Source of the DNA: Escherichia coli
Lineage (GTDB): Bacteria; Pseudomonadota; Gammaproteobacteria; Enterobacterales; Enterobacteriaceae
Assembly: GCF_003991155.1 (NCBI RefSeq)
Contig: NZ_CP031293.1
DNA length: 64,000 nucleotides
Strand: one strand, 5' to 3'
Part shown: piece after piece, positions 1,483 through 60,688 of the stretch
Position numbering within the stretch: position 1 is the stretch's first letter
Layout: the number at the start of each line of letters is the position of its first letter
Made by a program: the position numbers and the translations under genes
The notes under the pieces: model-generated
Database searches by the model: none
Told to the model about the DNA's origin: nothing
Seen by the model: the letters and a program-made list of their open reading frames with translations, nothing else

Positions 1483-2316
1483 ATGCAGAACAATGAGCAG
1501 ACGGAATACAAAACCGTGCGCGGCTTAACCCGCGGTCTAATGTTATTAAATATGTTAAATAAACTTGACGGCGGTGCCAGCGTCGGGCTGCTGGCGGAAC
1601 TCAGCGGCCTGCATCGCACCACTGTGCGGCGACTGCTGGAGACGCTGCAGGAAGAGGGATATGTCCGGCGTAGTCCCTCCGATGATAGTTTCCGTTTGAC
1701 CATCAAAGTGCGGCAATTAAGCGAAGGATTTCGTGACGAACAGTGGATTTCTGCACTGGCTGCCCCACTGCTGGGCGATCTGTTGCGCGAAGTGGTATGG
1801 CCGACAGATGTGTCCACGCTGGATGTTGATGCAATGGTGGTACGCGAAACCACCCATCGTTTCAGCCGATTATCCTTTCACCGGGCAATGGTCGGGCGAC
1901 GGTTACCGCTTCTGAAAACCGCCTCGGGCCTGACCTGGCTGGCCTTTTGCCCGGAACAAGAACGCAAGGAATTAATCGAGATGTTAGCCTCCCGCCCCGG
2001 TGATGACTATCAACTGGCACGAGAACCGTTAAAGCTGGAAGCCATTCTGGCGCGCGCGCGCAAAGAGGGGTACGGACAGAACTACCGCGGCTGGGATCAG
2101 GAGGAGAAGATCGCCTCTATCGCCGTACCGCTGCGCAGTGAACAACGGGTGATTGGCTGTCTGAATCTGGTGTATATGGCGAGCGCAATGACCATCGAAC
2201 AGGCAGCGGAAAAGCATCTTCCGGCGCTGCAACGGGTGGCAAAACAGATCGAAGAAGGGGTTGAATCGCAGGCTATTCTGGTAGCGGGAAGGCGAAGCGG
2301 CGTGCATTTACGCTGA
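1483..2316 (+). CDS. mhpR: IclR-family transcriptional activator of the mhp operon
   Basis: ORF 1471..2316; second in-frame ATG at 1483 gives MQNNEQTEYKTVRGLTRG and the 277-aa length I recall for MhpR; IclR-type N-terminal HTH. Confidence 0.9.
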   Translation: MQNNEQTEYKTVRGLTRGLMLLNMLNKLDGGASVGLLAELSGLHRTTVRRLLETLQEEGYVRRSPSDDSFRLTIKVRQLSEGFRDEQWISALAAPLLGDLLREVVWPTDVSTLDVDAMVVRETTHRFSRLSFHRAMVGRRLPLLKTASGLTWLAFCPEQERKELIEMLASRPGDDYQLAREPLKLEAILARARKEGYGQNYRGWDQEEKIASIAVPLRSEQRVIGCLNLVYMASAMTIEQAAEKHLPALQRVAKQIEEGVESQAILVAGRRSGVHLR

Positions 2317-37461: not shown

Positions 37462-37494
37462 AAACCGCGCCATATGCAGACATGGCGCGGTTTT
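37462..37494 (-). terminator. probable intrinsic terminator downstream of betT
   Basis: Perfect 12-bp inverted repeat AAACCGCGCCAT/ATGGCGCGGTTT around an 8-nt loop; on the minus strand the stem is followed by UUUCUCUU; 13 bp past the betT stop. Confidence 0.55.
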
Positions 37495-52839: not shown

Positions 52840-52963
52840 CCTGTAAATCCATCACATAAGATTTACCCTACCCTGCCACCGTCTAATCGGTACCAGGGTA
52901 GGTATTCAGTAAATAATGGCGCTGCGCATGTCAACGCCATTATTATTTATTACATCATCGCTT

Positions 52964-55900
52964 TTATTTCTCCTCAGCGCCTTCAGTATCTGCAGGAACG
53001 GCGTTAATTGTCACAGTCACTGGTTTCATTTCATACCCTCCATATGTCAAAGAGTTGAATGTGAATGTGTATGTACCTGGCTTGTTGGTACTAAATGTAC
53101 GCGTGATTTTCCCGTTCGCGAAATGGTCATTTTTCGACGGCAGGAACTGATAATCCGCCTCTGTCACCCCTTCCGGAGCCTCAATGTCGACCCACATGGT
53201 TCCTCCTACGGGGTTGACACCCGACATCAGAGTAACCGTCAGTGTTGCAGTTGTCTTCCCGTCCGCCACCAGAAAATCTACACGCTCTGGAGATGCAGCG
53301 AGCTCCGCGTTTTTATCATCCGCGACGAATTTAGATTCGGCAGTTTTCGTCGATTCCTGACCATCGGCCTGTTCCACTTTCGCCGTGAGTGTATATGTCG
53401 CTGCGACAGTGGTCGTGGCGGTGAAAATAGCCTGCCCTTGCTCATTCGTTGTCGCCGTCCCATTGGGAGTCAGAACTAAATTTTCCGGGCTGGCAGTCAG
53501 CGTCACTTCGCTATCTTTCAGCAGGTTGTTATTGGCATCAGTCACCGTAACTTTATACGTCTGTTTGGTTTTGCCATCCGCCACTGCACGGTTGCCAATC
53601 ACCTCAATACTGGAGATGGTCGCCGTAGTGTTATCGGCCACAAACGTTACAGACTGCGCATTCGAAGGCTGGTCATTTCCTGCTGACGCCGTGATCTCAT
53701 AGGTTCCGGCAGTCACGGAAACCACTTTCAGTTCCGCTTTACCCTCCTTGTCGGCGTTCACCATGATATTACCGTCTGCAAGCGGTTTGACGCCCCGAGG
53801 CAGATTAAAGACGACCACAGCGCCAGGAAGAAGGTTGCCGTATTGATCCTTAACCGTTGCCGTCAGCGTAAAGGCATCTTTGCCGTTTGCCACTTTTTGA
53901 GCAGCGGCGTCTACCTCCAGGCTCGCCTGACCGGTACTGAAATCCGCCTTGAATTTCACCTTGACCGTCTTCTGAGAGTTTTTCACCGAGGCCTCGATCT
54001 CAAGTTCCCCGGCAACCGTTGACATCAGCTCAATGTCAGCTTTACCTGCCGTATTGGTTGTTACCGTATTCCCCGTCTTGCTGGTCACGCCCTGCGGTAA
54101 AGTCAGCGTAACTTCTTGCCCCTGCAACGGGTTACCATAGCTGTCCACGACGGTCAGGGTTATCTGGTTAGCAGACTGTCCATTAGCCAGTTGGTTATTA
54201 ACCTTCACTGTCATATCACGAATCTCAGCCTTAGATGCGTCACCTGCAACGTTCAGCACCAGTGGCTGAGCAACGGCATTTTGGCCATTCACTCGCGGCA
54301 TCACAGACAACTGACCCGCGGCAGATCCCAGCGTTAAGGTCGCCACGTAGACCCCATTACTTTGCTCTGTCCAGCTTCCTGCTGAAGGTCGCTCACTCCC
54401 CGTGCTGGCGGCACCGCTAAACACTGGTGCATCGAGCTTCAGGCCACTAACAGGGTTCCCATACGCATCCTTCGCGGTGAAGGTAAGTTCCGTCGTCGCT
54501 TTGACGGTCGGAGCCTTATTGTCAGCAACAAGCGTAGAGTTCGCTGATGACATCTCCCCCGCAACGACAGTCAACCGCGCAGCATCGGTGGCTGCTGGCT
54601 GACCGTTGAATAGCGGCATAACGAGAAGCTCACCCGTCTTTCCCCCTGTGGTCAGCGTAGCGACATAGGAACCATCGCCCTGCTCGGTCCAGTTGGATAC
54701 CGTCGCCCCTTCAGACGCAGCACCCGTCAGGCTTGCCGACAGGGAAAGGCCACTGATAGCGTTGCCATGCGCATCTTTTGCAATAAGCGTCACGGTTGTG
54801 CTTTCGCCTGCTTTTACGCGGTCTGCGGCTACAGAGACTGTCGACTGGCCTGAAGATAACGCATCAGCCACCACGGTCACTTTAGCCGCATTCGCTGCCG
54901 CGTCCTGCCCATTGAGCTTCGGCATAACCTCTAATTCCCCCGCCGTAGTGCCGAGAGTAATCTGCGCAGTCCAGGTCCCGTCGCCATTATCCGTCCAGCC
55001 TGATGCCATAGACCCCGCAGCGGCTGCGCCAGATAATGACGGTGCATCTGGATTGAGGCCAATTACAGGGTTGCCATTGGCATCTTTTGCCGTCCAGATT
55101 GCCGTAAGCGTACCACCAACCACCGGTTTATCCGGATTCAGGGCGATGGTCGAATGTGCTGCATCAAGCGGCCCGGCGACAAACTTCAGCGTTTGTTGTA
55201 ATGAGCCCAACTGATACTGCTCGCTAAAGGCACGCACAACAACGTTTCCGGCACGGGTCGAAGAAACCGTGGCGCTGTAAACCCCTGGTTTTATTTCCGA
55301 AATGGCACCAATGGTTACACCATTAGTGTCTTGCGGAACAAGTCGCAGGCGGCTGGCTTCTCCCGTCACCGGATTACCCTCGGAGTCCACCGCTGTCAGT
55401 GTCAGCGTGTAGACTTGCTGACCATCAGCAACCACATCACCTGACGGCTCGTTAGCGCTCAGGGTGGAGTTTGCCACATCCATCATCGTGGCCCGCAGTT
55501 CTGCAGTGACAGTTTTGCTCATGTCATCAACGCTAACAGTAATCGTTGCCTCTCCTGACTGCGTTCCGGTAGTAAAGACAGACTGATACACCCCTGCTTC
55601 AGTTTCGGTGAACTCACCCAGTGTTGGCTTTGCCTGTGATTTAGTGGCCTTCAGGGTACGAGTCACAATATTTCCAGCCGGTTTGAACGTCAGCTCAGTC
55701 TTGATCTGATCTTTCATGCCCGTGACTGGCTGCCCCTCGGCGTCGCGCAGAGAAAGCACCAGTGGCTTTTGCTCACTACCGTTAGCAAGCATTTGAATAC
55801 GGCTCTGACCGTCAAGCGTTAACGCCGTGCGCTCGGCACTCATACCTGCTCCGGTAATGACCACCTCTGTCTGCACGTGTTTTGAGGCATTGCCTTTGTT

Positions 55901-57214
55901 ATCGTAGGCAACCGCAGAAATCGCATAATAATTGTCTTTGCCTGCCTGGTAAGCCGGGAGCGTCACTTGCCACTGATTGCCCTGCCCCGTAATTTTTCCG
56001 CCTGCGGCCAGCAAAGACGGCGCTTCCCATTGCACATTTTTCAGACCGTGAGTTGCTTTGCTGACCACAAGCCCCAGGGAAACCGTCTGGCCGCCCTTGC
56101 CTTCAATACGCTCAGGCAGAGCAATACGGATCACTTCAGATTTGCGATACTCAAGAACGATATTGTTATTACGCTCAACCAGGTCATAGCGGCTGCCTGC
56201 CAGCATTCGACGCTCGCGAATACTGTCTGTATCGAGTTGTTTTTCCAGAGGTTCGCCAATCCGATAATTAACTTCCAGGCCAAAGCGAGTGTCATTCTCA
56301 CCACTCTTGCCCTGCTTATGCCCGGCACTCAGGGTCAGAAGAGGCACTGGCGTGTAATTCACTTCAGCGGTAATCGCATGTGGATCTTTCTGGCGTTTAT
56401 CTTTACCAAACAGCCCGACTTCATCGCCATAATACTGTTCATACATCAGGCTTGCGCCAAGCTGCGGCCAGGCAGGTAAATAGCCCTCAGCACGAATATC
56501 CCAGCCATTCGCCGGGCGTTCCTGATAATCCTCAACATCCGGCGATTTTTTCCAGCCAGAAGCCCGGATATAACCATTGGCGCTCAGTTTCAAATAATCA
56601 CGCCAGTATTCCGCACCAACACCAATGCGGGTATGACTACGGGATAAATCATGATCGATAAAAGTATTCACCCCCGCCATCCAGTCATTTCCTGAAAAAT
56701 GACGCCAGCCAAAACCAATATTTGACTGAGTACGATCGTCGGTACGATGTATTGTCCCCTGAGTGAACAACATATTTGTCGGTGTATCATAAATCGGATA
56801 AAGCATTTCCAGCGAAGAATCCTTCAGCGAGAAATCTTTATCGACATTCAGTTTGACGCGCGCAGTACCGTATTTCCCGAGCCACTCCTGTATTTCCTGG
56901 TTAGCTTTAGCGGTGGCCATTCCGGTAATAAAATTACGTGTCGCATCGCTATCTGGCTGACTGCTTAAAAATGTCCCGGCATTTGCGGCAAACGACGCGA
57001 CATTTTTCTCCACGTTATTATCAGCAGTTACCGTAGTATTTCCCATGCTCAACCGTGGCTGAACCGCATGCTGCGCACGTGCCGCCATTACTGGGGTAAA
57101 GGTGACAGCGAGTGGAAAAAGAACCTGAACAGAGATATTTGCCCACGCCACGCAGCGGGCCAGAACTGAATAACGAAATTGTGGTTGTTTATGACCTATT
57201 TTATAACGTGACAT
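52964..57214 (-). CDS. eaeH: intimin/invasin-like adhesin (inverse autotransporter with bacterial Ig-like repeats), full length
   Basis: 1416-aa ORF; N-terminal signal and beta-barrel region, then a long run of Big-domain-like repeats rich in T/A/G/V (LTVVA... patterns recur); length matches FdeC/EaeH. Confidence 0.85.
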   Translation of the reverse strand: MSRYKIGHKQPQFRYSVLARCVAWANISVQVLFPLAVTFTPVMAARAQHAVQPRLSMGNTTVTADNNVEKNVASFAANAGTFLSSQPDSDATRNFITGMATAKANQEIQEWLGKYGTARVKLNVDKDFSLKDSSLEMLYPIYDTPTNMLFTQGTIHRTDDRTQSNIGFGWRHFSGNDWMAGVNTFIDHDLSRSHTRIGVGAEYWRDYLKLSANGYIRASGWKKSPDVEDYQERPANGWDIRAEGYLPAWPQLGASLMYEQYYGDEVGLFGKDKRQKDPHAITAEVNYTPVPLLTLSAGHKQGKSGENDTRFGLEVNYRIGEPLEKQLDTDSIRERRMLAGSRYDLVERNNNIVLEYRKSEVIRIALPERIEGKGGQTVSLGLVVSKATHGLKNVQWEAPSLLAAGGKITGQGNQWQVTLPAYQAGKDNYYAISAVAYDNKGNASKHVQTEVVITGAGMSAERTALTLDGQSRIQMLANGSEQKPLVLSLRDAEGQPVTGMKDQIKTELTFKPAGNIVTRTLKATKSQAKPTLGEFTETEAGVYQSVFTTGTQSGEATITVSVDDMSKTVTAELRATMMDVANSTLSANEPSGDVVADGQQVYTLTLTAVDSEGNPVTGEASRLRLVPQDTNGVTIGAISEIKPGVYSATVSSTRAGNVVVRAFSEQYQLGSLQQTLKFVAGPLDAAHSTIALNPDKPVVGGTLTAIWTAKDANGNPVIGLNPDAPSLSGAAAAGSMASGWTDNGDGTWTAQITLGTTAGELEVMPKLNGQDAAANAAKVTVVADALSSGQSTVSVAADRVKAGESTTVTLIAKDAHGNAISGLSLSASLTGAASEGATVSNWTEQGDGSYVATLTTGGKTGELLVMPLFNGQPAATDAARLTVVAGEMSSANSTLVADNKAPTVKATTELTFTAKDAYGNPVSGLKLDAPVFSGAASTGSERPSAGSWTEQSNGVYVATLTLGSAAGQLSVMPRVNGQNAVAQPLVLNVAGDASKAEIRDMTVKVNNQLANGQSANQITLTVVDSYGNPLQGQEVTLTLPQGVTSKTGNTVTTNTAGKADIELMSTVAGELEIEASVKNSQKTVKVKFKADFSTGQASLEVDAAAQKVANGKDAFTLTATVKDQYGNLLPGAVVVFNLPRGVKPLADGNIMVNADKEGKAELKVVSVTAGTYEITASAGNDQPSNAQSVTFVADNTTATISSIEVIGNRAVADGKTKQTYKVTVTDANNNLLKDSEVTLTASPENLVLTPNGTATTNEQGQAIFTATTTVAATYTLTAKVEQADGQESTKTAESKFVADDKNAELAASPERVDFLVADGKTTATLTVTLMSGVNPVGGTMWVDIEAPEGVTEADYQFLPSKNDHFANGKITRTFSTNKPGTYTFTFNSLTYGGYEMKPVTVTINAVPADTEGAEEK

Positions 57215-57764
57215 TGAGATAATTTCCTGATGAACGAATTAACGAACATAGGCAGACACAAATAATGGCGTCTGCTTGTCAGAAAAACCGGGGATTTCCC
57301 GGTTTCCTTTTCCGCAGAAAAGGAAATACCTTTATGTAAGAAAGTACACCGCCACCTAATATATCCAGTGCCTGTAGCCTCTCATCAGGTGGTTGGGCGC
57401 GGGATTATATTTTTATTTATGGGTGAAAATTTAGCTTTTTGTGCAAGTCATTAAATAGATACCTAAGTTATATTTCTTACTCTGCGGACAGTGAATAATT
57501 CATTATTCAGAGTGAATAATAATGACCTGCCTTTAATTAGCAACTATTGGAAATACGTCGAAGTAGGTATATACGCCAGGATAAACCGATATATTTTTTA
57601 TGGATATTCATTTTCCTTCATCAGACTGTGAATTGCAGGGATATCGAACTTGCACGACTCATCGCAACACTCAAACAGATTTATGAATTTCGTTCATAAC
57701 CCCTGACAAATCCTGCCGTCTAATCGAGCTTTTCCCTTTACGTTATGCTTCTCATGAACGATAA

Positions 57765-60688
<2,924 letters not shown>

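Follow-up and report, generated by a model that had tools for sequence, protein, structure and literature searches.

Why should a hairpin with the geometry of an intrinsic terminator stand just before the start codon of an adhesin gene? The question is raised by the fdeC (eaeH) locus in a 64,000-nucleotide stretch of Escherichia coli DNA (contig NZ_CP031293.1; hereafter the window), where such a hairpin, here called H1, lies on the fdeC-sense strand of the upstream spacer. The adhesin FdeC (EaeH) is broadly conserved in E. coli and is a vaccine candidate. Laboratory cultures hardly ever produce it; contact with host cells has been reported as an inducer and, to our knowledge, H-NS is the only regulator of FdeC described so far. 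The gene name is that of the annotation in the RefSeq record identical to the window sequence; over the 701 bases at 57150..57850, the window matches strain 2016C-3878 at 100% identity. Judging from natural sequence variation, H1 is under purifying selection as an RNA structure inside the fdeC leader. We tentatively favor the view that it is a leader (premature) terminator, a role for which termination is predicted and which may quite possibly prove correct.

The gene and the elements on which the question turns are the following:

52964..57214, minus strand: fdeC (eaeH), encoding an inverse autotransporter adhesin of 1416 amino acids; the gene downstream of the leader, with its ATG at 57214..57212
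57215..57250, minus strand: ribosome-binding region, with the Shine-Dalgarno (SD) sequence AGGAAA at 57228..57223, 8 nt 5' of the fdeC ATG
57280..57287, minus strand: U-run UUUUUCUG, reading TTTTT-C-T-G after the G+C core of H1
57285..57305, minus strand: H1, a terminator-like hairpin with an 8-bp stem (AAACCGGG/CCCGGUUU) and a 5-nt loop, AAAUC

The spacer that parts fdeC from a divergent aldo/keto reductase gene at 57780 (plus strand) spans 57215..57779 (565 nt). Positions 57285..57305 read AAACCGGGGATTTCCCGGTTT on the plus strand and AAACCGGG-AAATC-CCCGGTTT on the minus strand. The initial annotation had described an 8-bp GC-rich stem here, and the sequence agrees with it exactly, the stem consisting of five G-C and three A-U pairs. 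The minus-strand terminator geometry that it proposed is also borne out, with TTTTT-C-T-G following the stem at 57287..57280; the first three U of this run also pair with the AAA of the stem. The distance to the eaeH start codon, given there as about 70 to 90 bp, is 71–91 nt when measured, and the U-run ends at 57280, 66 nt before the fdeC ATG. No minus-strand gene lies upstream of the hairpin, as had been claimed; the nearest is the divergent reductase gene. A second inverted repeat, reported as TTCCTTTT-CCGCAG-AAAAGGAA, is present at 57304..57325 of the plus strand and extends to 57303..57326, and two further conserved hairpins, absent from the initial annotation, lie on the same strand as H1:

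57303..57326, minus strand: H2, an A/U-rich hairpin, UUUCCUUUU(C)-UGCG-(G)AAAAGGAAA
57252..57275, minus strand: H3, GCAGACGC-(8 nt)-GUGUCUGC, located 3' of the U-run and 5' of the ribosome-binding site
57346..57400, minus strand: H0, a stem-loop of 55 nt at the putative leader 5' end

H2 adjoins H1, and both compete for the AAA at 57305..57303. The sequence AUUUCCU, which forms the 5' arm of H2, is complementary to the SD region. The predicted folds are stable relative to shuffled sequences: −13 kcal/mol for H1 (z −3.2), −22 kcal/mol for H2 and H1 together (z −3.0), −14 kcal/mol for H3 (z −4.0), and −36 kcal/mol for the 96-nt block from H2 through H3 (z −5.5), which none of 200 shuffles matched in stability.

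The element belongs to fdeC. The spacer is single-copy. Of 5,426 complete E. coli genomes, 5,035 carry it, in nearly every case at an identity of at least 95%. A reading as a repetitive extragenic palindrome or mobile hairpin finds no match in these counts, the element occupying a median of one place per genome and at most two. In a protein-based search with one genome per species, close fdeC orthologues were recovered only in Escherichia (Escherichia sp. E1V33, E. whittamii and a divergent lineage labeled 'E. coli E69'), and all three carry H1 72–73 nt before the ATG. The leaders of homologues in Pectobacterium, Rahnella, Citrobacter, Hafnia and other genera showed neither an H1-like element nor sequence similarity. 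In the E69-like lineage (L004:730-2160), a divergent glutamate decarboxylase (gadB-like) gene replaces the aldo/keto reductase gene beside fdeC and its 231-nt leader, so that either the adhesin unit has moved or its neighborhood has been replaced. Between this lineage and all other E. coli, homology sets in at CTTGCACAAAAAG (near 57447), about 231 nt 5' of the ATG, and the sequences further upstream are unrelated; the fdeC promoter and leader are therefore expected within 57447..57215. The hairpins are linked to fdeC, single-copy and on the fdeC-sense strand, and they most likely belong to a structured leader that accompanies the gene and measures about 185 nt, with 231 nt as the upper limit.

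To follow variation within the leader, a scan of metagenomes with an exact 23-nt pattern from the ribosome-binding region yielded 118 stretches; combined with the window, K-12 and the loci of the three orthologues, they gave a set of 120 copies, comprising 56 distinct variants over 293 nt and 38 over 199 nt. Across the 38 variants, 99.3% of the cells in H1 remain paired. Four of its eight stem pairs vary, always by a C-to-U change opposite G that keeps a G·U pair in the sense RNA, and no G-to-A change occurs; roughly half of the copies, that of K-12 included, carry one such polymorphism, C57302U. The loop varies freely (AAAUC, AAAUU, AAAUA, AACUU), and the U-run has one variable position, in one of the 120 copies. 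H2 is nearly invariant (99.2% paired), H3 shows compensatory G-C to A-U replacement in three sequences as well as G·U/G-C/A-U variation, and in H0 the divergent lineage differs at both partners of three pairs, with 95–97% of the H0 cells still paired. For the four hairpins together, pairing holds in 94.4% of cells in the sense RNA versus 82.5% in the antisense RNA (H1, 99.3 versus 93.1; H3, 99.0 versus 87.5). Because the sense strand of the window supplied the structure, the overall sense figure is favored; the result for H1 is free of this bias, every pair of H1 being Watson-Crick in the window.

The E69-like lineage provides a deeper comparison, for which the third codon positions of fdeC serve as a neutral benchmark (76.4% identity between the window and this lineage). 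Against it, the parts of the leader behave as follows:

57280..57326, minus strand: H2, H1 and U-run, 46/47 identical; single difference in the H1 loop; binomial P = 5e-5
57215..57250, minus strand: ribosome-binding region, 36/36 identical; P = 6e-5
57428..57447, minus strand: Block A, an invariant 20-nt block (CTTGCACAAAAAGCTAAATT) at the 5' edge of the conserved unit, 20/20 identical
57346..57400, minus strand: H0, 65% identical; drift with compensation
around H3 (57252..57275), minus strand: H3 region, 72% identical; drift with compensation

The ribosome-binding region is identical at 36/36 positions in all three divergent Escherichia lineages, an identity that is independent of the DNA search pattern because these lineages came from the protein search. 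The compensated divergence of H0 and H3 is the behavior of hairpins whose role is purely structural. By this comparison, constraint on primary sequence applies to H2, H1, the U-run and the ribosome-binding site, as would be expected of segments that a protein or RNA polymerase reads or that have more than one pairing partner. Two variants stand apart. In 15 of the 120 copies (e.g. L039, L043, L083), the H1 loop (57293..57297) is fully inverted to GAUUU with the stem intact, probably the product of one template-switch event. One metagenome contig (L118:4414-4612) has a 30-nt deletion at about 57340..57311, with loss of the linker and the H2 5' arm and retention of H1, H3 and the ribosome-binding site; natural variation or misassembly may lie behind it.

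We also asked how often a site such as H1 arises by chance. In a custom terminator scan of both strands of the 64-kb window, with the U-run counted from the G+C core, six sites were found, and the U-tail score of H1 (3.45; 6 U in 8 nt counted from the core) was joint best. The other sites were:

37465..37490, both strands: a strong bidirectional terminator (two of the six sites)
52940..52916, minus strand: the 3' terminator of fdeC itself, 24 nt past the stop codon
two weaker sites, plus strand: the remainder

Forty dinucleotide shuffles gave 2.3 sites per window, 0.6 of them at the stability of H1, and the H1 terminator-like site is not a chance occurrence. The built-in terminator scan did not call H1 because it extended the stem through A/U pairs, leaving too few T in the tail. 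H1 has the G+C-rich stem (about 5–14 bp) and short loop of intrinsic terminators and a U-rich tract directly 3' of the stem. It does not lie at the end of a transcription unit, since the fdeC ATG follows at 71–91 nt and no gene in the same orientation precedes H1. If it is a terminator, H1 would be a leader terminator and not a gene-end terminator.

Whether H1 is transcribed as part of the leader depends on where transcription starts. A candidate promoter is the following block:

57403..57416, minus strand: invariant block with a perfect −10 hexamer, TATAAT (57409..57404); putative fdeC promoter

Positions 57414..57403 contain no variable column in the 56 variants, and the TATAAT block is 13/14 identical in the divergent lineage. 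A transcription start set by this hexamer would fall near 57398, at the base of H0. A good −35 is missing, and the promoter scan did not report the hexamer. Block A, likewise unchanged across the 56 variants and centered near −40 of this putative start, could be an activator site, and an 11-nt variable stretch (57427..57417) separates the two invariant blocks. A sigma-32-like promoter in K-12 (CTTGCAC-16 nt-CCCCAT) was considered and set aside, as its spacer is long and its −10-like part falls in the variable stretch. Another pair of promoter-like hexamers, ATGAGA-16-TATATT, lies at 57385..57358, upstream of H1. Downstream of it, neither the scan nor a reading of 57284..57215 revealed a promoter-like hexamer pair. 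All promoter-like elements in the conserved unit thus lie upstream of H1, which places H1 inside the leader.

In K-12, a sense transcription start site (TSS) at 313821 (plus strand of that genome), present in both wild type and Δhns (Forrest 2022), lies 536 nt upstream of the eaeH ATG, equivalent to about position 57750 of the window; sense transcription can therefore enter the leader. The extended −10 of this TSS, TGTTATCGT, is partly created by a deletion junction particular to K-12. Two TSSs induced in Δhns lie inside eaeH, at 314561 and 314791/2. The K-12 eaeH gene is truncated by IS3, and the leader element is still there, with the end of the U-run at 314288 and the ATG at 314357.

Premature termination is the most likely role of H1 because it combines the full features of a terminator with a position between the sole conserved promoter-like block and the start codon. 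RNA polymerase would start at the putative fdeC promoter (near 57398), or arrive from further upstream, transcribe through H0, a weak hairpin and H2, and then mostly halt at the U-run (about 57283..57280). The predicted product would be a leader RNA of about 115–120 nt, and FdeC would be encoded only by the read-through transcripts. In the read-through RNA, the 5' arm of H2, or the U-run with the adjacent CUGA, may pair with the SD sequence as an additional translational brake. A candidate signal for relief is the reported expression only at or above 39 °C. We infer the promoter, termination itself and what relieves it from these features. The element is an Escherichia fdeC-specific, previously uncharacterized example of a leader terminator or cis-regulatory 5' untranslated region (UTR). 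Of the suggestion in the initial annotation that it is an attenuator or the 3' end of a small RNA (sRNA), the part that stands is a real sense-strand hairpin, selected as RNA structure, between a promoter-like block and the ATG; an antiterminator, a leader peptide or a known aptamer, as an attenuator might employ, was not found.

Several observations weigh against premature termination at H1. A strong constitutive terminator before a conserved gene would require a mechanism of relief. Truncated and constrained folds from three possible 5' ends gave no stable structure that excludes H1. With H1 blocked, the best alternative, built on a 3–5-bp helix that needs RNA starting upstream of 57404, is 4–8 kcal/mol less favorable than the terminator fold. 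No conserved open reading frame (ORF) for a leader peptide was found on the sense strand 5' of H1; H0 includes an ATG ORF of nine codons that the E69-like lineage lacks, having ACG for ATG. The U-run has only five consecutive U, and the stem contains a U·G pair in about half of the copies. Covariation is weak because divergence among the samples is shallow and most copies were retrieved by the exact 23-nt pattern, and only four pairs in the whole structure change on both sides. RNA-end data from K-12 are also negative. The curated Term-seq tables of Adams et al. 2021 (PMC7815308) contain no 3' end near 314286-314291 and no eaeH or ykgP entry, the locus being H-NS-bound in K-12. No TSS was reported between 313822 and 314560 in wild type or Δhns (Forrest 2022), nor by Cappable-seq on the plus strand between 313300 and 313599 (Ettwiller 2016; U00096.2 coordinates), FdeC-inducing conditions having been used in none of the three studies. 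These K-12 negatives carry little weight because the locus is H-NS-bound there (occupancy at 314161-314999 covers the hairpins and the 5' part of eaeH) and FdeC has been reported only at or above 39 °C.

Known regulatory devices were also sought in the leader. A search of all Rfam families (E≤10) over 56900..58100 returned only noise, the nearest being DUF2815 RNA at 18.5 bits against a gathering threshold of 41.2. Antitermination through ops and RfaH was rejected: the nearest leader sequence, GGCGGTGTACTT, has three mismatches to the 12-nt ops sequence GGCGGTAGnnTG, none was found with two or fewer, and three-mismatch matches are common by chance. The RfaH regulon of CFT073 comprises eight operons, and the main text of that study does not mention fdeC (PMC9765446). 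A short ORF (MFVNSFIRKLSQCHVIK) at 57196..57249 (minus strand) has its first codon in the 3' arm of H3 and runs, out of frame, across the start codon of fdeC. Leader-peptide attenuation through this ORF was dismissed; it lies downstream of H1, has no SD sequence, and has a stop codon in only seven of 120 copies, running on in the others.

Ranked second to the leader terminator is a possible, rather doubtful reading in which H1, H2 and H3 form a translational or stability element, perhaps an RNA thermosensor, that buries the SD sequence and start codon and opens at or above 39 °C. The terminator-like appearance of H1 would then be a by-product of a U-rich anti-SD sequence beside a stabilizing hairpin. 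The minimum free energy fold does pair UUUUCUGA (57286..57279, the U-run and CUGA) with UCAGGAAA of the ribosome-binding site (57230..57223), and CAUAAAGGUA with UAUCUCAAUG. The RNAalifold consensus instead pairs the 5' arm of H2, (G)GUAUUUCCU, with AGGAAAUUAUC (ribosome-binding site AGGAAAU), with H1 extended to 10 bp. Two alternative partners of this kind would account for a sequence that is frozen from H2 through H1 to the U-run, and again at the ribosome-binding site, as H0 and H3 drift with compensation. Temperature-dependent expression points in the same direction. In enterohemorrhagic E. coli (EHEC), FdeC was detectable only at or above 39 °C and at alkaline pH (Easton et al. 2014, as cited in PMC11143625). 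A study of avian pathogenic E. coli cloned fdeC 'with promoter sequence', and the plasmid-borne gene was expressed at 42 °C and not at 37 °C (PMC11143625). Its cloning primer matches 57466..57436, about 250 nt upstream of fdeC, and temperature dependence is retained by the clone.

The predicted energetics, however, do not single out the SD sequence. Its probability of being unpaired is 0.34, compared to 0.44±0.16 in 300 shuffled leaders, 21% of which are as low, and over the region from the SD sequence to the AUG it is not lower than in the shuffles. The predicted opening between 25 and 42 °C is gradual, from 0.14 to 0.28, and Rfam gives no matching thermometer family. Binding of the region by H-NS could account for the temperature effect without an RNA sensor. 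In addition, H1 and the U-run would form co-transcriptionally before the ribosome-binding site exists, such that termination must still be avoided.

The remaining readings are each less consistent with the data than the leader terminator. It is unlikely that H1 is the 3' end of an independent, trans-acting sRNA of about 70–120 nt that starts near 57398 or 57351, with fdeC transcribed by read-through or separately. The predicted layout does resemble that of enterobacterial sRNAs (5' hairpin H0, a 19-nt A/U-rich single strand, two 3' hairpins and a U-run), promoter-like hexamers (ATGAGA-16-TATATT and, upstream, the invariant TATAAT) are in place, and termination products of 5' UTRs that act as sRNAs are known in E. 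coli (PMC7815308). However, no sRNA is annotated here in MG1655, Rfam gives no match, and the searchable fdeC/eaeH literature was not found to describe such an RNA. The Term-seq, Cappable-seq and wild-type/Δhns lists hold no K-12 3' end or TSS in the leader, expressing conditions not being covered by them. A long uninterrupted poly-U tail is a criterion for Hfq-type sRNA terminators; here five consecutive U are followed by C-U-G. The presence of the element only in front of fdeC, with which it moves, fits a cis role better. As for sRNAs known from EHEC, EsrF is not a candidate, since it maps to the glnA-ntrB spacer. Esr41 lies in Sakai-specific DNA missing from K-12, and the fdeC leader element is present in K-12.

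The leader terminator and the anti-SD pairing could also be combined, in a scheme that is speculative and in its entirety improbable. H2, H1 and the U-run would form a dual-function switch that sets the 39 °C threshold: at 37 °C, it would terminate most leaders and bury the ribosome-binding site of the rest through two anti-SD sequences, fever or avian or bovine temperature would let both through, the leader RNA of about 117 nt would act in trans, and the whole would represent a new, Escherichia-specific class of cis-regulatory RNA.

There is little likelihood that the inverted repeats are palindromes acting at the DNA level (for H-NS or a transcription factor), or functionless products of shared ancestry. 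The region is H-NS-bound in K-12, E. coli copies are 95–100% identical to one another so that much of the conservation is shallow, and the loop inversion shows the palindrome to be active in DNA-level mutation. Yet the restriction of stem substitutions to G·U favors one RNA strand, and three or four consecutive hairpins, with compensation in H0 and H3, are unlike operators. Hitch-hiking is countered by 46/47 identity against the 76% neutral benchmark, with diverged flanks on both sides. The least probable of the readings, to which we give hardly any credence, is that H1 is an insulator terminator, perhaps bidirectional, that stops transcription from the A/T-rich intergenic region or the fdeC interior, with the true promoter in the last 70 nt: the K-12 sense TSS does lie upstream of the leader, an A-run and a U-rich stretch flank H1 on both strands, and the built-in scan calls H2 terminator-like on the plus strand, but no promoter-like hexamer pair was found downstream of H1, plus-strand H1 has a mid-stem A·C mismatch in about half of the copies, and the divergent lineage retains the element despite its different upstream neighborhood.

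Beyond the conserved fdeC unit, the spacer contains other features. Two direct copies of ATTATTCACT on the minus strand at 57489..57520 overlap a near-palindrome of 18 bp, TGAATAAT-GA-ATTATTCA. This arrangement resembles an operator that might serve the divergent aldo/keto reductase gene or the LysR gene, and it is missing from the E69-like lineage. A 24-codon ORF (MNIHKKYIGLSWRIYLLRRISNSC) at 57537..57611 (minus strand, fdeC-sense) has a strong SD sequence, AAGGAAA, and lies downstream of the equivalent of the K-12 TSS. It is probably not a real protein, its amino acid sequence being poorly conserved between Escherichia lineages. K-12 is without the aldo/keto reductase and LysR genes beside fdeC, and its upstream remnant is annotated as the pseudogene ykgP; homology to the window stops about 15 nt before the reductase ATG (near 57765; K-12 locus 2217..2306).

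A selected RNA element between the promoter region and the start codon would constitute a second, post-initiation layer of control for FdeC. Such control could explain why removal of H-NS in K-12 fails to activate a leader promoter. The element offers a concrete 25-nt target for mutagenesis in strains engineered to make FdeC, for which UACUACUG is a designed substitute for the U-run. If H1 is merely a leaky leader terminator, it would be an ordinary example of a common bacterial arrangement.

The fdeC leader shares features with several known systems. As in fourU and ROSE thermometers, a U-run complementary to the AGGA of the ribosome-binding site lies beside a stabilizing hairpin, and temperature-dependent expression has been reported. 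However, the U-run of fdeC is about 50 nt from the ribosome-binding site with a hairpin between them, burial of the site does not exceed that in shuffled leaders, no Rfam family matches, and the 39 °C threshold of FdeC could equally stem from H-NS. The trp, his, thr and pyrBI attenuators and riboswitch platforms also place a terminator in the leader of the regulated gene after further hairpins; the fdeC leader differs from them in that no leader peptide, convincing antiterminator or known aptamer was found. The predicted layout of H0, A/U-rich linker, H2 and H1 terminator is that of sRNAs derived from 5' UTRs by premature termination, although the fdeC product is predicted only and its U-run is short. 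H1 also resembles the intrinsic terminators in E. coli 5' UTRs mapped through Term-seq by Adams et al. 2021 (eLife, PMC7815308). The H1 site differs from these in having no 3' end in the tables of that study, fdeC being silent in K-12. The arrangement is the same, a G+C-rich hairpin and U-run between the promoter region and the start codon, and like those terminators, H1 could reduce downstream expression and release a short leader RNA.

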